Numbered from the stretch's first letter, positions 51,532 through 63,859 are shown. The stretch is DNA of 64,000 nucleotides from an uncultured Bacteroidales bacterium (GCA_947305795.1 CAMZEK010000007.1:627-64626), one strand, 5' to 3'. A program made the numbers and translations. Notes: generated by a model not told the origin, from the letters alone.

Positions 51532-51930
51532 TCAATCACTTACCATCTTCTCAATAGTTTCGATCATCTGCCGTGCCGGTTCTATCTTTTCCTCTAATAT
51601 CTCGGAATCAGCATCAAAAGCGCAGTTATAATCACTCTCCTCACGCATGGTTTGGAGTTGGTTATACAATCTACCGTACTCGGCTGGCAAAATCCCAGTT
51701 TTAATATATTGCTGTCCAAACATGGCATGAGACCCATGATGGGTGTGAACTTGATGACCGTCATGTATCATTAATGCCGAAATTGCATGAAAAACAGCAT
51801 AATACAAGCGATTAGCCACCCCATTCCAAAGTTCAGCATTTTTTAATGCCTCGACCTCTTTAAAAGTACGCCTTGCACGTTCAATTTCAAGTTGAACGAT
51901 TGTCCTTCTCTCTTCGTCACTCAAACTCAT
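51532..51930 (-). CDS. HEPN domain protein (toxin-like partner of MNT)
   Basis: 132 aa, helical. 'RLYYAVFHAISALMIHDG' and 'LQTMREESDYN' are HEPN (PF05168-like) features. 4-nt overlap with the upstream NTase gene. Confidence 0.7.
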   Translation of the reverse strand: MSLSDEERRTIVQLEIERARRTFKEVEALKNAELWNGVANRLYYAVFHAISALMIHDGHQVHTHHGSHAMFGQQYIKTGILPAEYGRLYNQLQTMREESDYNCAFDADSEILEEKIEPARQMIETIEKMVSD

Positions 51931-52285: not shown

Positions 52286-55200
52286 TCACCGCAAATCAAA
52301 CTCCACAAAAGGCATTTTCTCAAAAAGCGGAAGGATGTTTTGGGCATTAATGCCTCCGTTTCGAGGAGTCATGTTGCACGATTTCTTGGTCTTCGAGTTG
52401 AAAAGATGCACCTTATAGTTCTGTTTTCCAGCGTTTTCCTTCACCGTTTTGATGAACATGTCCATCTCCGGCTTGTTCATCTCCGTGATGTCCAACTTAA
52501 TGTAAACCGTCTTTGTGGTGTTTTCGAGCAACGAATCCAGCAATTTCGCCTCCGTGAAACGCACATCAAGGGTAGACGGCATAATATTTGGGTCTTGGCC
52601 TGGCCTCGGGAAAGGTGCCTGCAAAGTCCCGTAGAGCATCACAAACTCATTGAGAACCAACAAGTTCTTGCAATTCAGGTAATTCTCCTTGAACAACGAG
52701 AACTGGAAGGCACCCGTTTGGTCTTCGATGGTGAAACTCCCGTAGGCGTTGCCGTTTTTGGAAATCCGTTCCTCCGCCCGCGTGATTTGTCCGCCAAGGC
52801 GAACGGCACGCCTGATATTGCGTTCAGGGTCGTTTTGGGCGGCCTTCAGTTGCTCGACGGTGCAGTTGGCGAAATACCTCAACGGCAGGTGATAAACCTC
52901 CATCGGATGGGCCGAAATGTAGAAGCCCAAAGCCTCCTTTTCCATCTCCAACTCCTTCATTTTCGACCACGGCTCGCAGTCGGGCAGCGGAATACTGAAG
53001 GTCTCCTCCACCCCACCCTGGTCGCCGAAGCCGAACAAATCCATCTGCGCCGAGTTCTTGCGCTCGTTGAACGAGGCCACCATGCGCATGGCTTTTTCGG
53101 AGAACGTAGCGGACTCGTTGGGCGCAATGTTGAATAACATGGCACGATGGAAGCCCTTGAAGCTGTCGAAGCAACCCGCCATGCCCATGCTCTCCAAAGC
53201 CCTGACATTGAGTCCCTTGTCGGCGATACGCATCACAAAGTCACCGAAGTCCTTGAACTTGCCGTTGGCTTCGCGTTCGGCCACGATGCCAGCCACTGCT
53301 GCCTCGCCCACGTTCTTGATGCCACCCATGCCATAGCGGATTTCGCCCTTCTCGTTGACCGAAAACTCGTATTGCGATTCGTTCACGTCGGGACCTAACA
53401 CCGCTATTTTCATGCGTTTACATTCCTCCGTCATGAAGTTCACCTGCTTGATGTCGCCCAATTCGTTATTCAAAACAGCCGCCATGAACTCAGCGGGATA
53501 GTGTGCCTTGAGGTAGGCCGTCTGGTACGAAACCCACGAATAGCAGGCTGCGTGCGACTTGTTGAAGGCGTATGAAGCGAATTTTTTCCACTCTTCCCAA
53601 ATCTTTTCAAGACGTTTTTTAACCTCGGCCTCGGGCAAGTTTTCGGTTTGGGTCAGCTTGGCCACACCTTGTTTCATGAACTTTTCGTAAAGCTCCTCCA
53701 TCTTAGCCAACTGCTTCTTACCCATGGCCTTACGCAGCGTGTCGGACTCACCTCTTGTGAAATCAGCCAGCTCACGCGAAAGCAACATCACCTGCTCCTG
53801 ATAGACACAAATGCCGTAGGTGTCCTTCAGGTACTTCTCCATGCAGTCGAAATCATACTTGATTTCTTGCCGACCTTGCTTGCGGGCGATGAAGTCGGGA
53901 ATGTTGTCCATCGGGCCAGGACGATAGAGCGCGTTCATGGCGATGATGTCACCAATGACGGAAGGCTGCAACTCACGCAGGTATTTCTGCATTCCGGGCG
54001 ATTCAAACTGGAACGTGCCGATAGTGTTGCCTGAACAATACAAGTCGTAGGTCAGTTTGTCGTCAATCGGGATATGGTCGATGTCAATATCGATGCCACG
54101 GGTGCGCTTGATGTTCTTCAGCGTGTCCTTGATCAAGGTCAAAGTCTTCAGGCCAAGAAAGTCCATCTTGATGAGGCCGACAGTCTCAATGACGTGGCCA
54201 TCGTATTGAGTCACAACAACATCCTCTTTTGTGTCCTTGTCCTTGACGGTACACACGGGCGCGACATTGGTCAGGTCGTCGGCACCAATGATGACACCGC
54301 AAGCATGAATGCCAATTTGACGGTTGGTGTCCTCCAGCTCCTCAGCGTAGGTCAGCATCGAGGAAATGTTTTCATCCTTGCCCGTCAGCAACTCATGCAG
54401 TTCGGGAATGTATTTGTAGCAATTCTTCAGGTTGACCTTGGGCATCTTTTTGGGCAACGTGCCTTCCACGGCCTTTACCGCCGCCTCGTCGAAATTGCGG
54501 TCAGGGATATAGCTCTTGATTTTGTTCACCTCGGGCAACGGCACCTTCTGCACACGCCCCACATCGGCAATGGCCGACTTGGCCGCCATCGTGCCGTAAG
54601 TGATAATGTGCGCGACTTTCTCTTTTCCGTATTTCCTTGTCACCCAGTCCAACACGCGCTCGCGACCGTCATCATCGAAATCCACGTCGATATCGGGCAG
54701 GGAAATACGGTCAGGATTGAGGAAACGCTCAAACAGCAAGTCGTATTTCAGCGGGTCTAAGTCAGTAATTTTCAAGCAGTAAGCCACCACTGAACCAGCC
54801 GCCGATCCACGTCCTGGCCCCACCGAAACACCCAACTCCTCACGCGCCGCCCTGATATAGTCGCTCACGATGAGGAAGTAGCCAGGGAAGCCCATCGTCT
54901 TCATCACGTGCAACTCGAACTTGATGCGCTCGATTTGCTCTTCCGTCAGGTCTTTACCATAACGCTCATGGGCACCGTCCCAAGTCAATTTGGCCAAATA
55001 ATCCGCTTCGAGCTTGATACGGTAAAGCCGCTTGTAGCCGCCCAATTTCTTGACCTTCTTCTCGGCCTCCTCCTGCGACAAGACCACGTTGCCGTGTTCG
55101 TCGCGGGTGAACTCGTTGAACAGGTCCTCCTCGGTATATTTCTGTCGGTATTCCGCCTCGGTGCCGAAGTCCTCTGGAATGGGAAAAATCGGCATAATCG

Positions 55201-56899
55201 GGTCGGAATCAATGCTATAAGTCTCGACTTTATCAACAATCTCCTGCGTATTTTCCAAGGCGAAAGGCACATCGGAGAAGATTCGGCCCATCTCCTCGGG
55301 CGTCTTCAGCCATTCCTGCTTGGTGTAATGCATCCGCGTTGGGTCGTCCAAGTCCTTGCCCGTGCTAAGGCAGATGAGACGGTCGTGCGCCTCGCCGTGT
55401 TCTTCTTCCACAAAGTGCACGTCGTTGGTCGCGATGACCTTCACATCGTATTTCTTCGCCAACTCCAAGAGGATTTTGTTCACCTCCTTCTGGCGTTCGT
55501 AAACCTCGGTGTCACCGCCAGGCTTGTCGGTCTTATGTCGCTGGATTTCAAGATAATAATCCTCACCAAAAAGATTCTTGAACCATTGTATCGATTCCTC
55601 CGCGCCCTTGAGGTCACCGTTCATGATTTTTTGCGGCACCTCGCCCGCCAAGCAAGCCGAGCTGCAAATCACGCCCTCGTGATACTGCTCCAAAAGGCTG
55701 TGGTCGATGCGGGGATTATAGTAAAAGCCTTCCGTGTAGGCGATGGAACTCAACTTGCATAGGCTGTGGTAGCCAGCCTTGTTCTTCGCCAATAAAATAA
55801 GGTGCCAACCACGATCCTGACGACCGTCGCGTTTGTCAATGCTGATGGGCGCACAATAAGTTTCCATGCCAAAAATCGGCTTGAAAAACTGTCCGTTCAA
55901 TTGGTCAATTTCCGCTTGGGCGGCGGCTTTTTCCTCATCGGTGGCCTCCACCTTATTTAATATGGCTTTCTGTGCCTTGATGGCATCCTTCACCTTCGTG
56001 TTCTCTTTGTTCACCGTGTCAGCGAAGTCCTTGATACCAAACATATTACCATGGTCAGTGAGGGCGAGGCTATACATGCCGTATTTCTTGCATTTTTCCA
56101 CCAAGTCGGGTACCTTCGACATGCCATCGAGCATGGAATAATGCGAGTGGACGTGCAGGTGCGTGAAGTGCTTCGGGACATAGTTGCCGATTTCAGGCAC
56201 CTCTTCTCCCTCTTCTTCGTCAACGATAGGCTCAAAAGTAATTCCAGCGGGCTGAATCATCTCAGGATTGGCCGCCTTGAACTCCTCGATGAACTGCGCG
56301 TCAACGCCCAAGTCGTTGGCATCCAACACGCCACGACGCACCAATTCGAGGAACACGCGTGCTGTGGCCTCCACGTCGGCAGCGGCATTGTGCGCCAAAT
56401 CGAACTTCTCGCCAAACAAGATTTGGTGGAACTCCTCTAAACGTGGCAACTTGAACTTGCCGCCCTTGCCGCCAGGCAGTTGGCAAAACTCGGCTGTTTT
56501 TTCGGTGCAAGTGTCTACTTTCTGCCAATTGGGTAGCGGATTCTCGCCTTTCTTGCGCATGAACTCGCAGCCAAGAATACAGAGGTCGAAGTCGATATTA
56601 TGCCCCACAAAGCGCGTGGCTTTCGAAGCCGACTGCAGGAAAATATCAAGCACCTCGGCTAACGGCTTGCCGTGCTCGGAGGCATATTTAGTGGAGATAT
56701 GATGCACCATCTTGGCATCGATAGGAATCTCAAAACCCTCAGGCTGAACGATATAGTTGTGCGCCTCCACGAAGCGACCCTTGTCGTCATGAATTTGCCA
56801 AGCCAGTTGCACCATGCGTGGCCAGTTGTCGAAGTCGGTCAGCGGCGCGTTGTAGTTTTTGGGAAGACCTGTGGTCTCGGTATCGAAGACTAGAAACAT
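52286..56899 (-). CDS. dnaE: DNA polymerase III alpha subunit (DnaE) with N-terminal DEDDh 3'-5' exonuclease (DnaQ-like) domain
   Basis: 1537 aa. Residues 1-190 carry ExoI 'VFDTETTGL', ExoII 'GHNIDFDLCIL' and ExoIII 'HNAAADVEA'. The PHP domain starts at 'THLHVHSHYSMLDG' (about aa 245), followed by a canonical DnaE body ('GFPGYFLIV', 'GPGRGSAAGS', 'LPDIDVDF'). Confidence 0.9.
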   Translation of the reverse strand: MFLVFDTETTGLPKNYNAPLTDFDNWPRMVQLAWQIHDDKGRFVEAHNYIVQPEGFEIPIDAKMVHHISTKYASEHGKPLAEVLDIFLQSASKATRFVGHNIDFDLCILGCEFMRKKGENPLPNWQKVDTCTEKTAEFCQLPGGKGGKFKLPRLEEFHQILFGEKFDLAHNAAADVEATARVFLELVRRGVLDANDLGVDAQFIEEFKAANPEMIQPAGITFEPIVDEEEGEEVPEIGNYVPKHFTHLHVHSHYSMLDGMSKVPDLVEKCKKYGMYSLALTDHGNMFGIKDFADTVNKENTKVKDAIKAQKAILNKVEATDEEKAAAQAEIDQLNGQFFKPIFGMETYCAPISIDKRDGRQDRGWHLILLAKNKAGYHSLCKLSSIAYTEGFYYNPRIDHSLLEQYHEGVICSSACLAGEVPQKIMNGDLKGAEESIQWFKNLFGEDYYLEIQRHKTDKPGGDTEVYERQKEVNKILLELAKKYDVKVIATNDVHFVEEEHGEAHDRLICLSTGKDLDDPTRMHYTKQEWLKTPEEMGRIFSDVPFALENTQEIVDKVETYSIDSDPIMPIFPIPEDFGTEAEYRQKYTEEDLFNEFTRDEHGNVVLSQEEAEKKVKKLGGYKRLYRIKLEADYLAKLTWDGAHERYGKDLTEEQIERIKFELHVMKTMGFPGYFLIVSDYIRAAREELGVSVGPGRGSAAGSVVAYCLKITDLDPLKYDLLFERFLNPDRISLPDIDVDFDDDGRERVLDWVTRKYGKEKVAHIITYGTMAAKSAIADVGRVQKVPLPEVNKIKSYIPDRNFDEAAVKAVEGTLPKKMPKVNLKNCYKYIPELHELLTGKDENISSMLTYAEELEDTNRQIGIHACGVIIGADDLTNVAPVCTVKDKDTKEDVVVTQYDGHVIETVGLIKMDFLGLKTLTLIKDTLKNIKRTRGIDIDIDHIPIDDKLTYDLYCSGNTIGTFQFESPGMQKYLRELQPSVIGDIIAMNALYRPGPMDNIPDFIARKQGRQEIKYDFDCMEKYLKDTYGICVYQEQVMLLSRELADFTRGESDTLRKAMGKKQLAKMEELYEKFMKQGVAKLTQTENLPEAEVKKRLEKIWEEWKKFASYAFNKSHAACYSWVSYQTAYLKAHYPAEFMAAVLNNELGDIKQVNFMTEECKRMKIAVLGPDVNESQYEFSVNEKGEIRYGMGGIKNVGEAAVAGIVAEREANGKFKDFGDFVMRIADKGLNVRALESMGMAGCFDSFKGFHRAMLFNIAPNESATFSEKAMRMVASFNERKNSAQMDLFGFGDQGGVEETFSIPLPDCEPWSKMKELEMEKEALGFYISAHPMEVYHLPLRYFANCTVEQLKAAQNDPERNIRRAVRLGGQITRAEERISKNGNAYGSFTIEDQTGAFQFSLFKENYLNCKNLLVLNEFVMLYGTLQAPFPRPGQDPNIMPSTLDVRFTEAKLLDSLLENTTKTVYIKLDITEMNKPEMDMFIKTVKENAGKQNYKVHLFNSKTKKSCNMTPRNGGINAQNILPLFEKMPFVEFDLR

Positions 56900-57006: not shown

Positions 57007-57510
57007 CTATTTCTTTTTGAAATTATTCCACATCTGTTTCACCATGCCAGCGATTTCTTCCCAAAACCAAACTGGTTCCAGCACTTCCATAGCATCACCA
57101 TTTTTTCTGTGGATTGAGTTGGCATATTGCGTCAGCTCATTACGAAGTTCAGGTTGCAAAGAAGTGTAATGAATACAGGCCACAAGCCAATCGAGAATCA
57201 CTTGACGATAGGCTTTGCCTTTGTATTCGATGCGCGAGAGGGCTTCAGTACGTTGGTCATTGAGGGTTAAACTAATCCGATTGTGCCCATGTTCAACGGC
57301 CATACTTCTGCCCTGATTGTCGACAATCATTAAGCTGGGACTTACTTGAGCGGTTTCACAATCAAAAGAGAATGGCCTTTTCTGCCGTATCACTTCATTG
57401 ACGAAGGCATACATGAAGACACGACCCATGCCATGCTCATCCTCGTGACTTAGCAGACGGGCGATAGTTGTAGTGTTGAATGTTTTCGATGCTATCGTTT
57501 TCATTTTCAT
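57007..57510 (-). CDS. hypothetical protein, third gene of the FtsZ-like operon
   Basis: 167-aa ORF with an ATG start and a 4-nt overlap with the upstream gene. I recognise no motif. It has a basic amphipathic C-terminus 'WFWEEIAGMVKQMWNNFKKK'. Confidence 0.45.
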   Translation of the reverse strand: MKMKTIASKTFNTTTIARLLSHEDEHGMGRVFMYAFVNEVIRQKRPFSFDCETAQVSPSLMIVDNQGRSMAVEHGHNRISLTLNDQRTEALSRIEYKGKAYRQVILDWLVACIHYTSLQPELRNELTQYANSIHRKNGDAMEVLEPVWFWEEIAGMVKQMWNNFKKK

Positions 57511-58199
57511 TTCCTTTTAAGCCTTTTGAAAAACGCTCTTATTCTTGAGGTTCTCTTTGTCGTTTGTTGTGGCTCTGGCAGGGCACGGATTAGGCATTTT
57601 GCTACTTCCGCCAACAAGTCATCGGCCTTTGTGAAGGCTTGGTTTATGGGCAAGTCGCAGTATTGTGTTTTGATGTACTGGTTGTTGAGCAGGAAGAGAG
57701 CATCCGTGTTTCTTGCCAAGTTTTGAATTCCTTCCGAGGCTTGCGAGAATCTGCGTTCGCCTTCCAATTCGAATGGCAAAGTGGCAAGGGCAATGGTCGT
57801 GATGCCCATCTTTTTTGACTCACGGGCGATTACGGGAGCAGCACCCGTGCCGCATCCACCTCCAAGACAGGTGACAACAAAGGTCATAGAAGGTTTGTCG
57901 TCGAATAGTTTCTTTATTGCATCTGTGTTTTCTTCAGTCGCGATGCGTGCTTTTTCGGGGCTATTGCCGCTTCCAAGTCCGTCTGTGCCGAGTTGTAGGG
58001 TCGTGGTGGCGACTGATTTCTCGAGTACTTTGGTATCCATGTCGCAGGCTACAAAGGAGAAACCTTCCAAATTGCTTTGGCTTATATGGTTGACGATATT
58101 GTTGCCGCCACAGCCAACGCCGATTACTTTAACGGTTGGCTTTATCGTTGAGGTTGCTTTTTTGTTCATAGTCGTTGTATTGTTATGAGATTTCAACAT
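57507..58199 (-). CDS. FtsZ/tubulin-superfamily GTPase-domain-only protein
   Basis: 230 aa. 'KVIGVGCGGNNIVNHI', 'GLGSGNSPEKARIATEE', 'CLGGGCGTGAAPVIA', 'TLPFELEGERR' and 'DALFLLNN' are colinear with E. coli FtsZ residues ~10-200. It ends after helix H7 with the basic tail 'RTSRIRAFFKRLKRK'. An alternative start is ATG 58169. Confidence 0.7.
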   Translation of the reverse strand: MLKSHNNTTTMNKKATSTIKPTVKVIGVGCGGNNIVNHISQSNLEGFSFVACDMDTKVLEKSVATTTLQLGTDGLGSGNSPEKARIATEENTDAIKKLFDDKPSMTFVVTCLGGGCGTGAAPVIARESKKMGITTIALATLPFELEGERRFSQASEGIQNLARNTDALFLLNNQYIKTQYCDLPINQAFTKADDLLAEVAKCLIRALPEPQQTTKRTSRIRAFFKRLKRK

Positions 58200-58851
58200 T
58201 CAGTTCGATATTGAAGTCGCGCACCCAAAGGAGGTCGAAAATGGCGAATTCCATGTGCTCGAAAAGGTCGTGGAATGCGAATATAAGATGCATGTCTTTT
58301 GTCAGTTTTCCGTCTAAACCCTCGTTCCAATTGTCCGTTTCTTCACTCAAATATAGCATTTGATGTTCGGATTCTATTGTTGGGACGGGGGAATGATAGG
58401 TGTCAATTCGGAATTGTCCGAATCCGTTATGGTACAAAGGAATAAAGTCATCGATTGTTCCATTCAGTATGTCCCACATCCGTTTGGCGCGTTCGTCTTG
58501 AATGGGATGCAAAGGAGGATAGTCGTAGCCGAAATAGCATTTGCCCTCCACTTCGATGGTTCCTGGCAATTCTGCTTTGGCCACCGACTCATAAAGTGCT
58601 ATAGTGCGTTTGCGCATCTCTATCATCTGTTGCTTCATGGCCTCGTTGAAGTCCTTGAGCAGTTGCAAATAATAGTCGTCCATCACGAACATTTCGTTTA
58701 AGATGGTTTTCCTGATGCTCAAAAGGTTTTGGATGGTTACTCTTCCTGTTTCCATGCCCCACATGCCTTTCTCGCTCTGTCGCTGGCAGTCGAGAATCAT
58801 GTACTCCACCTTCCTGACCGGCTGTGAGTTGTAGATTTCTTGTATGGTCAT
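58183..58851 (-). CDS. hypothetical protein, first gene of the FtsZ-like operon
   Basis: 222-aa ORF with an ATG start. Its stop overlaps the FtsZ-like start by 17 nt. I recognise no motif. Confidence 0.45.
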   Translation of the reverse strand: MTIQEIYNSQPVRKVEYMILDCQRQSEKGMWGMETGRVTIQNLLSIRKTILNEMFVMDDYYLQLLKDFNEAMKQQMIEMRKRTIALYESVAKAELPGTIEVEGKCYFGYDYPPLHPIQDERAKRMWDILNGTIDDFIPLYHNGFGQFRIDTYHSPVPTIESEHQMLYLSEETDNWNEGLDGKLTKDMHLIFAFHDLFEHMEFAIFDLLWVRDFNIELNVEIS

Positions 58852-58869
58852 AGTGCGTTACGATTTAAC

Positions 58870-58915
58870 GATGCAAAGAAAAAGAAAGCCTGTGCCGAAT
58901 TGAAGCACAGGCTTG
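58870..58915 (-). repeat. 46-nt hairpin / T-tract / near -7 box cassette, copy 1
   Basis: The minus strand reads CAAGCCTGTGC-TTCAATTCG-GCACAGGCTT TCTTTTTCTTTGCATC. It lies 22 nt after the HAD gene stop and about 18 nt before ATG 58851. Confidence 0.85.
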
Positions 58916-59504: not shown

Positions 59505-59550
59505 GATGCAAAGAAAAAGAAAGCCTGTGCGGAATTGAAGCACAGGCTTG
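59505..59550 (-). repeat. 46-nt hairpin / T-tract / near -7 box cassette, copy 2
   Basis: Identical to copy 1 at 45 of 46 positions; the only difference is in the loop. It lies after the PD-(D/E)xK gene stop and about 22 nt before ATG 59482. Confidence 0.85.
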
Positions 59551-59581: not shown

Positions 59582-60796
59582 CTAATTGTCATTATCTTTG
59601 ACAATGGCAATAGTTTCTTCGAAATGTTGATACACTTCATCAAACTGTTCAATATCAAAACTTTTATACATTTCTTTGCGGTCATTGCTGTGCGGCAGAT
59701 GCTCTTGCTGATTAAGGTCGTCATGATGAGGCTTTTTAAGCCTCTCTACTGTTGAACCAATAAGTTCTCTGTCTTGAACGGGCAGATTAAAGTCAAAATA
59801 GAAACCACTATAAAACTGTGCCCCATCGCAACCGATAGAAACGACAGCTCGTTTCCCTCGTATTCCATCTATGTTATCGAACGTTACATCCGTTATTACC
59901 CACCCTTTTCCACTACCCTCACTAACTTTATTAGGCTCCAGTTTAGAGTATTTTTCTGCTGTTTTCTTTTTCCATGTTTCGTAAATGTTTTTGCGATAAT
60001 CCTCAATCATTTTATTCATTTGTTGAGAAACCTCATTAATACTATCGCTTTTTTCTCGCAAAAAAGAAATACATTCCTTATCGCTTTTTTCTGATAAGTC
60101 AAATTGCTTAATGATTAACTTTTGTAATTCTTTGTTCATTGGTTCGTCTATGTTTCTTATTTTGAATAATCCTTCGAGGTAATCAATATATTGAATGATA
60201 GCTGACTGTAGAAACTGTTCTTTGCACTCAATACACGGCATAACTTTGTCTTTCAGCCATGGTAAAATGTCATAGCAATAGGACAAATTTACATATCTTG
60301 AACGAAAGCTGTCTTTATATTCGCCCCATGATTGCGGCTCTGGCTCTTTGGGGTATTGGGAAAGATAGACGACAAAAATCTGGTTTTTGTTATAGTCATG
60401 CTTTAAGGTTTTCCCAATGTAGTTACTCAATTGAGCCTCTCTATCATCTGCATTATAGATTTTGTTCTCAAAAATAATGGCATAATTCTTATCCATTACC
60501 CATAAATCAATGCGTTCTTTCTCTTGTGTGATTTTTGGAGATTCAATAGTGATTTTGCCGAAATCTCCTGAAAGCCTTTCTTTAATTAGGTCTATTAAAG
60601 AAGTCAAAAAAACATATTTGCCATTTTCGTTTGTATAGGATAATAAATGCATCAAAATCCGGCTGTGAGCGTTTTCGTTGATGTGCAACTGGTCCACCAA
60701 ATTTAAATGAAAGGGTAACTTTTTCTGTTCTTCTTCTTTGATTTTTGAAAACTCAGATGCGAAATTCCATAAGTCTGATAATTGTTGTTCATTCAT
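59582..60796 (-). CDS. PD-(D/E)xK nuclease family protein (PDDEXK_4-like)
   Basis: 404 aa. N-terminal 'ENAHSRILMHLLSY' followed by 'RIDLWVMDKNYAIIFENKIY' (D...ExK core). The gene is AT-rich. Confidence 0.6.
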   Translation of the reverse strand: MNEQQLSDLWNFASEFSKIKEEEQKKLPFHLNLVDQLHINENAHSRILMHLLSYTNENGKYVFLTSLIDLIKERLSGDFGKITIESPKITQEKERIDLWVMDKNYAIIFENKIYNADDREAQLSNYIGKTLKHDYNKNQIFVVYLSQYPKEPEPQSWGEYKDSFRSRYVNLSYCYDILPWLKDKVMPCIECKEQFLQSAIIQYIDYLEGLFKIRNIDEPMNKELQKLIIKQFDLSEKSDKECISFLREKSDSINEVSQQMNKMIEDYRKNIYETWKKKTAEKYSKLEPNKVSEGSGKGWVITDVTFDNIDGIRGKRAVVSIGCDGAQFYSGFYFDFNLPVQDRELIGSTVERLKKPHHDDLNQQEHLPHSNDRKEMYKSFDIEQFDEVYQHFEETIAIVKDNDN

Positions 60797-60834
60797 ATTT
60801 AATTGTTGCTACTTTATTGTTGATATTCTGAAGA

Positions 60835-61248
60835 TTAATTCATCTTATTCCATTGGTGATACCCGCCCGAAGGGCAGTCAAATGCATTGGGCGACTTTGA
60901 GGCATACAACAGAAGGCCACATTTTTTGCATTGATAGACATCGGTGCCTATCGGACATAAATCTTGCCAATTATGGTAGCCTCCAGCAGTGCATCCAAAA
61001 GAAGATGGGGTGTTCTTGCTTTCAACGAGAAGACCGCATTTCTTGCATCGGTAGTTTTCGCAACCGACTTCGCCGAGGTCGTTCCAATCGTGGTAGTTTC
61101 CAGCCCGACAATTGAACGCATTGGGCTGTCGCTCTGTTTTAATCAGAATGCCACATTTCTTGCATTGATAGTTTTTCATAGGCGGCCAGGTTGGGTTTTG
61201 CATTTGTAAGCATAAAGCCAGTATGATATTTGCAGCAAAGGTAATCAT
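60835..61248 (-). CDS. protein with three tandem CCCH zinc-ribbon-like repeats
   Basis: 137 aa. Three ~39-aa units 'Y[QR]CKKCG[IL]L...P..F.C..G.YH.W' (C-x2-C-x14-C-x5-H). Hydrophobic N-terminus 'MITFAANIILALCLQ'. Alternative starts at M16 and M24. Confidence 0.5.
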   Translation of the reverse strand: MITFAANIILALCLQMQNPTWPPMKNYQCKKCGILIKTERQPNAFNCRAGNYHDWNDLGEVGCENYRCKKCGLLVESKNTPSSFGCTAGGYHNWQDLCPIGTDVYQCKKCGLLLYASKSPNAFDCPSGGYHQWNKMN

Positions 61249-61285
61249 TTCTATGAAACAAACGGGATTTTGAAAAAAACTGCGA

Positions 61286-61957
61286 TTACTTGACTATCCA
61301 GTATTCCCTCAAAAGTCTTTCAAACTTCTGTTTCCCGTTTCCGTTTCGATGATTCCACGAAAAGTGAACGGCAGGGTGATTGACGAAATCAATCGGAATA
61401 TCATAAGACAATCCATTCAAGCCCATGTACTTCATAAATTCCGAGTGTGCATATTTGCTGACGAATATGACTACATCAGGTTGGTCGAGTTCAATGATTC
61501 CACATAATGCGCTGCCTGCCACATCACGGTCCAATTGGGAGCAATCTTTTTTGAATGATCTATTGTTTTTCCTCACCGTGGCTGGACGCAGAAAATAATT
61601 ATAGAACATGGCCTCCTCATAGACATGCTCACAAAGTGTTTCTTTCAACACTTCATTCATGGATTTACACAATCTATCAAAAGTCTTATATCCTTTGTAG
61701 TTGCTTACATCTTCCTTTTTTACTTCTGGTATCAAATGTTGTTTGTCCGCACCCTTATACCACGCCTGTGGGTCTTTAAACACACTATCGACACCATCGT
61801 CAAAATAGTTGCTTTCTCCAACTATCAACAGTTTTTTATGTTTGGTGCTGTTCCAATAATTCTCCAAAGAAGCAGGAACGAGTTCGGTGAATCTCACGAA
61901 GATGCCTTCCTTGACAATCTGGTCTTTTCCGATGTTTACATACTTATTGTTTTCCAT
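61286..61957 (-). CDS. hypothetical protein with uracil-DNA glycosylase superfamily-like motif order
   Basis: 223 aa. 'KLLIVGESNYF' (cf. family-4 motif A GEAPG), 'FYNYFLRPA' (cf. N-x4-RP), 'QPDVVIFVSKYA' (cf. P-x-[IV]-[IV]-x-LG-x-x-A) and 'VNHPAVHF' (cf. motif B HPS/HPA). This is motif-order similarity only. Confidence 0.4.
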   Translation of the reverse strand: MENNKYVNIGKDQIVKEGIFVRFTELVPASLENYWNSTKHKKLLIVGESNYFDDGVDSVFKDPQAWYKGADKQHLIPEVKKEDVSNYKGYKTFDRLCKSMNEVLKETLCEHVYEEAMFYNYFLRPATVRKNNRSFKKDCSQLDRDVAGSALCGIIELDQPDVVIFVSKYAHSEFMKYMGLNGLSYDIPIDFVNHPAVHFSWNHRNGNGKQKFERLLREYWIVK

Positions 61958-62028
61958 ATTTTATTGATTTTATTGTATTTAGAGTTTGTTTTTCGTTTGT
62001 TTATTTATGTCAACTCGATCGTTTTTTC

Positions 62029-62073
62029 GCTGCAAAGAAAAAGCAAGCTTGTGCAGAATCGCAGCACAGGCTG
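62029..62073 (-). repeat. hairpin / T-tract / near -7 box cassette, diverged copy 3
   Basis: The minus strand reads CAGCCTGTGC-TGCGATTCT-GCACAAGCTT GCTTTTTCTTTGCAGC, about 72 nt upstream of ATG 61957. No minus-strand gene ends upstream of it. Confidence 0.7.
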
Positions 62074-62115
62074 TAATAAAACTTCAAAAAATGCTACGAT
62101 TCGTTTTTTTATTTC

Positions 62116-62123
62116 TACTTTTG
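62116..62123 (+). promoter_or_regulatory. Bacteroidota -7 promoter box (TAnnTTTG)
   Basis: TACTTTTG about 23 nt upstream of ATG 62147. Confidence 0.5.
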
Positions 62124-62146
62124 CAACCGAACAAAATACCTCCAAA

Positions 62147-62467
62147 ATGGAATACGAAGAAAACAACAATCCCGTCAGCATGGCTTCAGAACCTTCCGCC
62201 GCGTTGTATTATGGCTCAAGTACCAAACTCAGGGAAAGCGGCATCATCCCACAATTGTCTCACCTTGACAAGTCGGACACAATTTGGATTATCCGTTTTT
62301 TGCAACTGCAATTGGAACAGATGAGAGCAAAAGAGAACAATCTTCAAGAACAAGACATCGACCCGATGTTTGGGCTGGATTTCCTGAAAAGCATCCACAA
62401 AGACGTGCCCGATTTTGAGCAACTGAGAACTGAACATTTCCTTGACAAATATGGCATTGTATTATGA
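62147..62467 (+). CDS. putative antitoxin partner of the PIN toxin
   Basis: 106 aa starting at MEYEENNNP. ATGA overlap with the PIN gene. The track ORF (from 61625) is over-extended antisense into the neighbouring gene. I recognise no DNA-binding motif. Confidence 0.45.
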   Translation: MEYEENNNPVSMASEPSAALYYGSSTKLRESGIIPQLSHLDKSDTIWIIRFLQLQLEQMRAKENNLQEQDIDPMFGLDFLKSIHKDVPDFEQLRTEHFLDKYGIVL

Positions 62468-62910
62468 AGGTATTTCTCGACACCAATATTTTTGTTGAAT
62501 ACATTTATGAAAGAGAGCAATTTGCATCTGTTCAACGCATATTCAAAGCCATAAAGAACAAACAAATTGATGGAATCACTTCACACGCCACGTTTTACAC
62601 TTTGGCATATCTCTCCGACCAGATGTTAAAACACAAAGGAATCCATCGTCCAGAATTGACTGAACAAACCCGTGGAATTGTTCGTAGTATGCTTCAACTT
62701 GTTCCTGTTGGAAACATGGATTACGCTGACATGATTACAGGAGTTGATGACACTACATTTTCTGACATTGAGGACAGTTTTCAATACCAATGTGCCTTGC
62801 GAAACCGATGCGATTATCTAGTCACCATCAACATCAAAGATTTCCCAAATGTGCCACAAACATTGATGGAAATATTGACACCAAACGATTTCGTCGCGAA
62901 AGTCCTTTAA
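62464..62910 (+). CDS. PIN domain ribonuclease (VapC-like toxin)
   Basis: 'MKVFLDTNIFVEYI' (first acidic residue), 'DIEDSFQYQCA' and 'DYLVTINIKDF'. 148 aa. Confidence 0.8.
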   Translation: MKVFLDTNIFVEYIYEREQFASVQRIFKAIKNKQIDGITSHATFYTLAYLSDQMLKHKGIHRPELTEQTRGIVRSMLQLVPVGNMDYADMITGVDDTTFSDIEDSFQYQCALRNRCDYLVTINIKDFPNVPQTLMEILTPNDFVAKVL

Positions 62911-62968: not shown

Positions 62969-63859
62969 TCACCCCTCCTCCTCCGGCTCCACATGAATAG
63001 AAATGTGCGTCTCCTCGCCGTAGCGTTCTTTCAGCAGGTGTTCCACCTCGGAGGCTTTATCGTGGGCTTCCTTCAGCGGGATGTCGCCGTCCATGAGGAT
63101 GTGCATCTCGATGGCGTAATGGTTGCCGATGCGTCGGGTGCAGAGATCGTGTGGCTCACTGACCCCCTGCACGCACTTCACGATGTCCAGAATCTCGTTC
63201 TCCACCTCCTCCGGCAACGACTGTTCCATCAGCTCGCCCATGCCGTTCTTGAGCAAGTCGATGGCCACCTTGACGATGAGTGCACCCACAGCGATGGAGG
63301 CAATCGGGTCGAGAACGGCCCAACGCTCACCCAACAGGATGGCACCGCCGATGCCGATGGCCGTCCCGACTGACGACAAAGCATCGCTGCGATGGTGCCA
63401 AGCGTTGGCCTTCATCGCCTGCGAGTCCAACTGTTCAGCTTTGCGTTTGGTGTATTGGAAAGTCAACTCTTTCAGCAAGATAGAAACCAAAGCCGCCACA
63501 AGTGCCAGTATCCCTGGCTGGGTCAAATTGCCGCCCTTGGCCCAAAAAGCAATCTTCTTGGCCCCATCGACGAAGATGCCCACGGCGACCGCAAACAGCG
63601 CGATGCCAATGAGGGTGGTCGCCAGGGTCTCGAACTTGCCGTGACCATAGTCGTGCGACTTGTCCTTGGGTTTGTGGCTGATGCGCACGAAAGCCAAGAC
63701 GATGATGTCAGTGACAAAATCCGACACCGAATGCACCGCGTCGGCAATCATGGCGGAACTGTGGCCGATGATGCCCGCCACAAACTTGAACACCACCAGC
63801 ACCACATTGACCGCGCTACCCCAAAGGGTCACTTTATAAACTTCTTTTTCCCTATCCAT
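62969..63859 (-). CDS. cation diffusion facilitator family transporter
   Basis: 296 aa. 'SSAMIADAVHSVSDFVTD', 'HDYGHGKFE' and 'NAWHHRSDALSS' are CDF signatures. It has a cytoplasmic C-terminal domain. Confidence 0.9.
   Translation of the reverse strand: MDREKEVYKVTLWGSAVNVVLVVFKFVAGIIGHSSAMIADAVHSVSDFVTDIIVLAFVRISHKPKDKSHDYGHGKFETLATTLIGIALFAVAVGIFVDGAKKIAFWAKGGNLTQPGILALVAALVSILLKELTFQYTKRKAEQLDSQAMKANAWHHRSDALSSVGTAIGIGGAILLGERWAVLDPIASIAVGALIVKVAIDLLKNGMGELMEQSLPEEVENEILDIVKCVQGVSEPHDLCTRRIGNHYAIEMHILMDGDIPLKEAHDKASEVEHLLKERYGEETHISIHVEPEEEG

Follow-up and report, generated by a model that had tools for sequence, protein, structure and literature searches.

What would a protein with the first half of FtsZ be doing away from the dcw (division and cell wall) cluster and amid genes of the conflict type? 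The question is raised by a 64,000-nucleotide stretch from an uncultured Bacteroidales bacterium (GCA_947305795.1, CAMZEK010000007.1:627-64626; the whole stretch is here called the window), where three open reading frames (ORFs) run in one direction on the minus strand: 58183-58851 (222 residues, ‘A’), 57507-58199 (230 residues, ‘Z’) and 57007-57510 (167 residues, ‘C’). A first-pass annotation, made from the sequence alone, had described the three as an operon built around Z as an FtsZ homologue, and they are indeed present as it placed them. In Z the N-terminal GTP-binding domain of FtsZ is followed by a linker of variable sequence and then by a conserved C-terminal helix that is amphipathic and basic. 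Z is a real architectural variant of the FtsZ family, to all appearance not described before: a half-FtsZ with a membrane helix.

An FtsZ GTPase domain with a membrane-type tail

The kinship to FtsZ proposed for the middle protein is borne out by matches to profiles and to chains of solved structures alike. Z matches the Pfam Tubulin/FtsZ GTPase family PF00091 over residues 23-177 (E=5.7e-30, 105.5 bits with a cutoff of 33), and the TIGR00065 ftsZ equivalog over profile positions 5-212 of 353, with 176.6 bits where the cutoff is 295.2. It also matches 49 chains of solved FtsZ structures, best among them that of Pseudomonas aeruginosa (1ofu, E=6e-41, query 22-204 to chain 13-198), and the possibility, raised at the outset, of its falling outside the FtsZ/tubulin fold can be set aside. 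Alignment with E. coli and Bacteroidales FtsZ has Z ending some 25 residues past helix H7, at about E. coli residue 200. Neither the T7 NxDxxD loop nor the C-terminal subdomain is present in Z by alignment with canonical FtsZ or in the PDB matches, in agreement with the earlier statement that the protein stops right after H7. Below the TIGR00065 cutoff and lacking both of these elements, it is not a bona fide FtsZ. Other identities fared poorly. PADLOC-DB v2 has no model for Z and gave a single, spurious-looking match, to REase_II (E=2e-4). A PHROG match to PhuZ (E=0.004) is at the level of the superfamily only, and identity as a phage-encoded tubulin (PhuZ/TubZ) was rejected.

Beyond the domain comes a linker (about residues 193-206) that is the most variable part of the close family, and then a tail whose core, RIxAFFKRL, is conserved among 120 homologues, a combination in keeping with a membrane helix that is held to a folded domain by a flexible tether. 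The hydrophobic moment of the protein is highest in the last 11 residues, RIRAFFKRLKR (0.81; mean 0.34, sd 0.17), and the net charge of the tail is +7. Analogous amphipathic tails, KAFFRRLFGR, ISYIKKIFTKKV and SFIKNWFKAI, recur in clades that are 41-48% identical. The likeness to MinD and FtsA tails that was remarked on from the start is upheld, in that the Z tail is basic, amphipathic, at the extreme C-terminus and preceded by a flexible linker, as membrane-targeting sequences of the MinD/FtsA type are, and it is on these features predicted to be a membrane-targeting helix. In one of the more distant short proteins (P0242, below) the tail, GLKAFFRRLFGR, resembles the sequence KGFLKRLFGG of E. 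coli MinD.

Family, origin and selection

A word-indexed search with Z yielded 356 clusters at E<=1e-10. Among the 120 listed, 80 are 220 residues long and the remainder 211-223, with the start at the second ATG of the window ORF (58169, MNKKATS...). Given these homologue lengths, the second ATG is most likely the true start, and the 230-residue ORF most likely begins too early, the real product having 220 residues. The 17-nucleotide overlap with A that had been read as translational coupling then probably becomes a 13-nucleotide gap.

Within species-representative genomes Z occurs at 17 loci with 78-91% identity, the hosts being uncultured Bacteroidales metagenome-assembled genomes from rumen, goat or deer, bar one labelled Candidatus Limiplasma. 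When 1.84 billion cluster representatives were scanned exhaustively with HMMER, most of the matches were full-length FtsZ, at 38-47% identity, but further short proteins were among them: P0242 (228 residues, 48% identical), P0253 (229 residues) and P0257 (233 residues). Each of these stops after H7 and bears an amphipathic tail (GLKAFFRRLFGR, ISYIKKIFTKKV and SFIKNWFKAITNNN, respectively). When a neighbour-joining tree was built from the GTPase domain, the short forms, 8 of the 47 terminals, fell into one clade with no full-length member; truncation and tail acquisition thus happened once, with diversification afterwards. Two other proteins from the scan, P0241 (840 residues) and P0312 (826 residues), were discarded as relatives of the short clade: they are tandem duplications of the full FtsZ, with two complete cores per polypeptide and a Pro- or Gln-rich linker between, and may be either natural tandem fusions or artefacts of gene calling.

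Pairwise Nei-Gojobori comparison with the window sequence gave ratios of non-synonymous to synonymous substitution (dN/dS) of 0.24 for Z, 0.16 for A and 0.18 for C. The Z clade is therefore a monophyletic group of FtsZ paralogues under purifying selection. The suspicion that Z might be the frameshifted remnant of a full-length paralogue is in effect refuted by the uniform shortness of the 120 listed clusters, the dN/dS value, the presence of the tail in deep clades and the single origin.

Searches further afield with tblastn against isolated phages and plasmids found ordinary FtsZ alone, at no more than 41% identity to Z, and the viral contigs of IMG/VR held no relatives of Z or P0257. Full-text literature searches and PADLOC hold no description of Z, and the earlier impression that no system of such composition had been described stands for those sources.

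The nucleotide pocket and the polymerisation surface

The majority of GTP-contact positions do not vary between short and canonical proteins, namely, in Z numbering, G19, G21, G22, N24, G103-105, G107, T108, G109, E136, N163 and F179. Superimposed on this are substitutions (in Z numbering again) particular to the short clade, judged against 38 full-length FtsZs at positions that are 89-100% conserved in the latter. In the T1 loop the canonical G at position 20 is C; in the T2 loop the N-T at positions 43-44 is D-M; at the end of strand S4 the G at position 101 (G103 of E. coli) is C; and in the T4 loop the first T of GGGTGTG, at position 106 (T108 of E. coli), is C or F (T being kept in P0257). 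On the GTP-binding, or top, surface the Q at position 47 has given way to K, N, A, S or E. The signatures that result in Z are GGGCGTG for the canonical tubulin signature GGGTGTG and GCGGNN for the canonical T1 sequence GGGGGN. The changes of T to C or F and of G to C are fixed in the clade, and of 120 close homologues 119-120 have C20, D43, M44, C101 and C106 unchanged. At position 47, where 95% of canonical FtsZs have Q, 101 of the 120 sequences of the window clade have K, and the other short clades have A, S or E. On the same face the equivalent of L178 remains hydrophobic (I, V, I or L) in every short clade, and K51 and N24 are retained.

What is known of these positions comes from FtsZ proper. 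T108A abolishes GTPase activity and leaves GTP-dependent assembly in place (PMC5979038). Q47K and L178E, both on the GTP-binding surface, give non-functional and presumably monomeric FtsZ (PMC13423816). Residues 42-54 of the N-domain, with G20, N24 and K51, touch the T7 region of the neighbouring subunit (PMC12137876), and L178 packs hydrophobically against three residues of the next subunit, L270, L272 and M206.

A separate observation concerns the three cysteines C20, C101 and C106 (codons within 57852-58112), which stand where canonical FtsZ has two glycines and a threonine, conserved at 97-100%. All three cysteines line the pocket that binds phosphate, where a metal or redox site may replace or modulate nucleotide binding.

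The gene unit and a deletion at its end

The third ORF is not what it seems. When 23 related loci (L001-L023) were compared by tblastn, residues 1-136 of the 167-residue ORF matched directly after Z, and residues 137-167 matched 1-4 kb further downstream. At the DNA level, window positions 57594-57105 align to L001 8579-9062, the C gene, and 57102-57009 to L001 10954-11047, the last 94 nucleotides of a WYL/WCX regulator gene, the C-terminus of which, ...WNGDALEVLEPLWLREEMAGMVKRMWNNYSKK, is the source of the window's ...NGDAMEVLEPVWFWEEIAGMVKQMWNNFKKK. The 167-residue ORF is thus a deletion chimera of C and the WYL C-terminus. Because the deletion, of about 1.9 kb, fused the two genes, the amphipathic basic tail that had been ascribed to the 167-residue protein is borrowed from the regulator, and its candidacy as a second membrane anchor was dismissed. 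The junction is at about 57103, and the deletion took the rest of the WYL gene and, where present, Fic. The WYL stop codon is the exact point at which homology to the other loci ceases, and the RNase_T gene that usually follows is also gone from the window.

Native C is 135-146 residues long. All 31 aligned members of its family match three PADLOC PDC-S26 models, with best E-values of about 1e-12 to 3e-14, over some 50 residues plus an N-terminal helix; the match to Pfam PDDEXK_4 reaches E=0.041 only. The absence of a recognisable motif, asserted earlier for both partners of Z, accordingly holds for A but not for C. The link of C to PDC-S26 rests on the PADLOC hidden Markov models: against the window's own PDC-S26 protein, BLASTP and hhalign gave nothing significant, only resemblance of a 16-residue N-terminal helix. 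C has neither the full-length (~400-residue) PDC-S26 architecture nor the conserved D...ExK motif. Its putative ExK positions vary (VEHKRN, VEHGHN, VKHGHN, VTHKRN; E/K/T/V/A at one and K/G/N/R at the other, with EHG in the window), and because of this C is unlikely to be an obligate nuclease. The AlphaFold2 (AF2) model of C is of low confidence (predicted local distance difference test, pLDDT, 69; predicted template modelling score, pTM, 0.52); it had no Foldseek match in the PDB at E<=0.001, and a profile search against PDB sequences gave nothing useful.

C adjoins Z in 22 of the 23 loci, and a WYL gene lies downstream of Z in 16. For a possible toxin-antitoxin or abortive-infection pairing of Z with C, the indications are this adjacency and the setting in the island. 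Spacing is operon-like: Z, 5 nucleotides, C, 45 nucleotides, Fic, 5 nucleotides, WYL, with RNase_T overlapping WYL by 4 nucleotides. The native unit hence continues to the WYL regulator and RNase_T, beyond the extent given to it before, both having been lost from the window.

Table 1. Features of the Z locus and neighbouring cassettes in the window
Feature	Positions	Strand	Basis or remark
A (A222), 222 residues, first in the cassette but optional; helical hairpin plus small beta-sheet	58183..58851	-	AF2 model
Z, short FtsZ, 220 residues	57507..58169	-	mechanical ORF reaches upstream ATG at 58199
FtsZ N-terminal GTP-binding domain of Z, residues 12-195 (T1 to H7)	57585..58136	-	alignment with canonical FtsZ
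Variable linker, then C-terminal amphipathic basic helix TSRIRAFFKRLKRK (57510-57551)	57510..57584	-	predicted membrane-targeting sequence
C, native part (residues 1-136) of a ~141-residue miniature PDC-S26/PDDEXK_4-like protein	57105..57510	-	degenerate ExK motif, VEHGHN in the window
Last 31 codons and stop of WYL/WCX regulator gene, in frame with C	57007..57102	-	~1.9-kb deletion
Cassette-boundary element: 11-bp-stem hairpin (58886-58914), T-run, CTTTGCAGC, short leader 5′ of A	58853..58914	-	terminator-like
Second boundary hairpin, 5′ of HAD_SAK_2 cassette	59521..59549	-	sequence repeat
Third boundary hairpin, 5′ of X223-Zn137-PDC-S26 cassette	62045..62073	-	sequence repeat
Neighbouring cassette: HAD_SAK_2 protein, 181 residues	58937..59482	-	Pfam PF18143, E=6.8e-26; phrog_1818
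Neighbouring cassette: X223 (61286-61957), triple zinc-ribbon protein (60835-61248), PDC-S26/PDDEXK_4 nuclease (59582-60796)	59582..61957	-	

The optional first gene

The three genes do occur together at other loci, but not as a fixed unit. A is directly upstream of Z in 13 of the 23 loci and missing from the other 10, and the P0242 clade has neither A nor C. In loci that lack A, Z starts MTIQKATST..., which is the first four codons of A (MTIQ) joined to Z, at L001 8001, L015 2784, L016 7992, L017 2635, L019 7992 and L023 7992, and the 5′ element is unchanged. A was evidently removed by precise in-frame deletion with preservation of the expression signals. The deletion may have come about through imperfect direct repeats, ATGACCATACAA and ACGACTATGAACAA.

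The A family is large (399 matches) and extends well beyond Z, with relatives at 46-64% identity that have no FtsZ-like gene nearby. Some are in relaxase- or integrase-bearing elements by a DUF6557-like protein, PolIII-alpha/PHP, GmrSD and WYL-RNase_T, and one is by mfd. A may belong to a separate two-gene module. A-like genes of 46-56% identity (L024-L027, L039, L040, L043) usually adjoin a DUF6557-like protein of 323-356 residues, and the elements in which they sit have McrBC-like or GmrSD genes and WYL-RNase_T as well as a relaxase or an integrase. In the relaxase-bearing L024 and L039 there are also separate PolIII-alpha/PHP genes of 816-819 residues.

A itself has no match in Pfam, NCBIfam, PADLOC or PHROG. 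Its AF2 model is confident (pLDDT 78, pTM 0.75), and Foldseek found no match to it in the PDB or BFVD at E<=0.001. A weak helical match to phosphoserine aminotransferase in a profile search of PDB sequences (E=0.002) was judged to be due to chance.

A hairpin-bounded cassette in a defence array

In its native form the unit reads hairpin / (A)-Z-C-(Fic)-WYL-RNase_T and is one of the cassettes that make up a hairpin-delimited defence array of rumen Bacteroidales. The hairpin of its own with which the operon had been credited is real: a strong hairpin and then a T-run lie 5′ of the first gene. It is one of exactly three copies in the window (58889, 59524, 62048), all at the 5′ boundaries of cassettes and with none elsewhere in the 64 kb. 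The element, of about 45 nucleotides, has the form (A)AGCCTGTGC-N9-GCACAGGCTT-T-rich-CTTTGC (the hairpin may also be written GCCTGTGC-N9-GCACAGGC, followed by the T-run and CTTTGC) and precedes each cassette irrespective of the genes within. A core of ~41 nucleotides is invariant in ten copies before seven different genes, copies outside the window being at L011 3615, 4495, 6624 and 7259, L001 2226, 3777 and 7942, and L007 1101, 5031 and 7260. The same ~61 nucleotides precede A where A is present and Z directly where it is absent, and there is no copy between C and WYL/RNase_T. The predicted RNA fold has -25.4 kcal/mol (z=-3.97), and Rfam has no family for the region. The layout suggests a terminator that insulates the cassette, with a Bacteroidetes -33 TTTG box after it, and the element may also be a substrate for cassette exchange.

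Across loci, the order is X223, a Zn-ribbon protein, a variable slot (PDC-S26, a ~265-residue protein, HAD_SAK_2 or GmrSD), then (A), Z and C, and after C a further variable slot (RhuM/Fic or two other genes), WYL, RNase_T and housekeeping genes. Defence-type genes around Z comprise PDC-S26, GmrSD, PLD, Fic and HEPN-MNT. Synonymous divergence (dS) between the window and L001-L023 is 0.13 for A, 0.26 for Z and 0.72 for C, about a five-fold spread among adjoining genes, which fits mosaic recombination inside the cassette. In most related loci the 137-residue protein, with three tandem zinc-ribbon repeats (DUF7128-like), and the 223-residue X223 form a conserved left anchor, and a paralogue of X223 sometimes occupies the variable slot.

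In the window, the placing of Z in a conflict island away from dcw is confirmed: PDC-S26, HAD_SAK_2, PIN and HEPN genes are present, and no dcw genes are nearby. The island is flanked by dnaE (52286-56899) and a cation-efflux gene (62969-63859). The dnaE product (minus strand, 1537 residues) combines an N-terminal RNase_T/DEDD exonuclease with PHP, PolIII-alpha, finger, HhH and OB domains. A PIN pair (61625-62910, plus strand) with the look of a toxin-antitoxin system marks the island's far edge, a 280-residue ORF overlapping a PIN_3 gene (E=3e-13), and on the other side of dnaE is a solitary HEPN-domain gene (51532-51930, minus strand). The more distant P0242 clade stands alone, with no A, C or WYL gene, amid GmrSD/DUF262, PLD, AAA-ATPase and HEPN-MNT genes.

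What the short FtsZ may do

FtsZ subunits join at the bottom of the filament and carry GTP on their top face, and for hydrolysis the subunit above must supply its T7 loop and H8. Division is blocked by mutants in which the bottom face is defective, and substoichiometric levels suffice according to a citation of Du et al. FtsZ1, a truncated paralogue, blocks division on overexpression, and WYL regulators switch on division inhibitors in two lineages, including the membrane-anchored AciT. On this background the likeliest reading, plausible though still short of probable, is that Z interferes with host FtsZ, and so with cell division, from the membrane. The conserved contacts suggest that it would bind GTP and the tail that it would sit on the inner face of the membrane. 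With T7 and the bottom face absent, it should be unable to build filaments in the manner of FtsZ or to activate a neighbour's GTP hydrolysis. It might then use an intact top face to occupy the growing, T7-exposing bottom end of FtsZ filaments, or otherwise sequester FtsZ, the tether concentrating it where the filaments run, and the change at position 106 to C or F could lengthen its GTP-bound state. The outcome would be a division block within a stress- or phage-triggered response, comparable to that exerted by membrane-anchored division inhibitors under WYL control.

Several considerations weigh against interference with host FtsZ. The C-terminal subdomain of the lower subunit takes part in the conformational switch associated with polymerisation, and its loss should weaken affinity. 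Q47 is changed, to the very K in the window clade that is reported to block polymerisation of E. coli FtsZ. The N-domain regions that contact T7 have G20, N43 and T44 replaced by C, D and M, and with these changes fixed, Z may no longer dock on host FtsZ in the canonical way. To no canonical FtsZ is Z more than about 42-47% identical, and no regulation scheme is conserved across the family, the P0242 clade having no partner or WYL gene nearby. For docking on the bottom face of the filament the evidence therefore points both ways, with the L178 equivalent, K51 and N24 kept but Q47, G20, N43 and T44 changed.

Divergence of the polymerisation surface would be harmless if Z were a decoy or co-sensor, a membrane-tethered mimic of the FtsZ N-domain that binds phage or mobile-element proteins (T7 Gp0.4-like, CbtA-like) and either soaks them up or shows them to an effector, C or a neighbouring cassette, so triggering defence. 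A ternary complex involving FtsZ and phage Gp0.4 activates the CapRel defence protein, Z is located in an array of defence cassettes, and C comes from a candidate defence family. A mimic should, however, resemble its target, whereas Z, its nucleotide pocket remodelled, shares only ~45% identity with canonical FtsZ; the globular domain is without the hypervariable surface patch expected from an arms race; the catalytic motif of C is degenerate; the P0242 clade has no partner; and no Bacteroidales phage inhibitors of FtsZ are known. A bait function of this kind is rather unlikely.

Much the same likelihood may be given to a neofunctionalised membrane switch or effector that is independent of FtsZ and binds nucleotide or metal, such as a GTP/GDP or redox sensor or a membrane-perturbing protein whose amphipathic helices would come into play on activation. 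Fixed T1, T2 and T4 substitutions at residues that are 89-100% invariant elsewhere, the near-invariance (119-120 of 120) of C20, C101 and C106 in the phosphate pocket, the freedom of position 47 across short clades and an architecture like that of MinD, with a nucleotide-binding domain and C-terminal membrane helix, all would suit such a role. Retention of most GTP contacts and of the hydrophobic H6-H7 residue on the top face would be unexpected if these were irrelevant, and the FtsZ/tubulin superfamily offers no precedent.

Less likely again is that Z is a housekeeping accessory regulator of division comparable to Hyphomicrobiales FtsZ1, located in a variable island by chance. Truncated FtsZ paralogues that tune division do exist, and Z-C synteny is stable in a group of related species. 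Yet FtsZ1-type proteins keep a ~315-residue core and a strict GTP pocket, neither of which Z has; the Z cassette is bounded by the same repeat as defence cassettes; the dS contrast of adjoining genes speaks of recombination; and the second short clade, too, is amid GmrSD, PLD and HEPN-MNT genes. That Z is a decaying, functionless remnant of a full-length paralogue is very improbable indeed, the 3′-end deletion suffered by the window cassette notwithstanding, in view of the selection, uniform length, deep-clade tails and monophyly described above.

Relation to known systems

Canonical FtsZ (TIGR00065; PDB 1ofu, 6unx) shares with Z a homologous T1-H7 N-domain (E=6e-41) in which most GTP contacts are conserved. 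Z is without T7, the C-terminal subdomain, the linker and the conserved C-terminal peptide, and has fixed changes at G20, N43, T44, Q47, G103 and T108 (E. coli numbering). Canonical FtsZ is tethered via FtsA or ZipA, whereas Z has a membrane helix of its own and lies outside dcw. Extra truncated ftsZ copies outside dcw that are kept by selection have a parallel in the Hyphomicrobiales FtsZ1 of Agrobacterium (bioRxiv 10.1101/2025.09.29.679267). FtsZ1, however, keeps a core of ~315 residues including T7 together with a strict GTP pocket, co-polymerises with the main FtsZ, and loses only the linker and C-terminal peptide without gaining a membrane helix; Z is cut after H7 and has had a helix added. 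With that core missing and the pocket remodelled, classification of Z as an FtsZ1-type paralogue was rejected. FtsZl1 and FtsZl2 (Makarova & Koonin 2010, PMC2875224) are likewise members of the FtsZ superfamily that may lack filament elements and for which a membrane role was proposed. FtsZl1 is extremely divergent, being alignable only to H5, and has a coiled-coil, an unrelated C-terminal domain and vWA/OmpA operons. Z aligns through H7 at ~45% identity, has a 14-residue tail and no coiled-coil, and has no vWA/OmpA genes nearby, so it is not an FtsZl1.

Other parallels are to parts of the proposal. The short basic amphipathic helix at the extreme C-terminus, after a flexible linker, is as in the membrane-targeting sequences (mts) of MinD and FtsA, and engineered chimeras of FtsZ, yellow fluorescent protein and such a sequence (FtsZ-YFP-mts) bind membranes directly. 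In contrast to the chimeras, the helix of Z is natural and on a half-FtsZ predicted not to polymerise, its membrane binding likewise being a prediction. Block of the growing bottom end by a bound unit with no bottom face to offer, as predicted for Z, is the likeness to end-cappers and sequesterers of FtsZ (MciZ, SulA and bottom-face mutants such as L272E and those at D212). MciZ and SulA, small proteins of unrelated origin, attach to the bottom face of FtsZ, whereas Z itself would be the terminal ‘subunit’, and its top-face changes of the Q47K type, a further difference from the cappers, may prevent docking. Linkage of a WYL/WCX regulator to a membrane-associated candidate inhibitor recalls Caulobacter DriD-didA and Acinetobacter DdaA-aciT, with the differences that the inhibitors DidA and AciT, both small membrane proteins, have no kinship to FtsZ and that the window has lost its WYL gene. 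As to C, it matches three models of PDC-S26 (PDDEXK_4, ~400 residues), of which a full-length, 404-residue member is two cassettes upstream in the window; C has only ~141 residues, and its ExK motif is variable or lost.

Significance

If Z does dock on FtsZ, it would be a genetically encoded capper of the bottom end that could serve in studies of treadmilling. Separation of the two faces of a subunit is a standard trick in work on filament polarity and capping, and here it has been done by evolution with a membrane anchor added. If Z does not dock, it would show re-use of an isolated nucleotide domain of the tubulin fold. The hairpin-delimited array, for its part, is a tractable example of how the content of Bacteroidales defence islands is shuffled.

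The broader proposal, that a half-FtsZ with its own membrane anchor is an immune or stress effector from a mobile defence array, as filament-end poison or as bait for phage proteins, is possible but on balance doubtful. If true, it would provide the first FtsZ-derived component of a conflict system, and the division machinery would join the host processes that have been recruited into defence islands, complementing the part of FtsZ as a co-sensor for CapRel.

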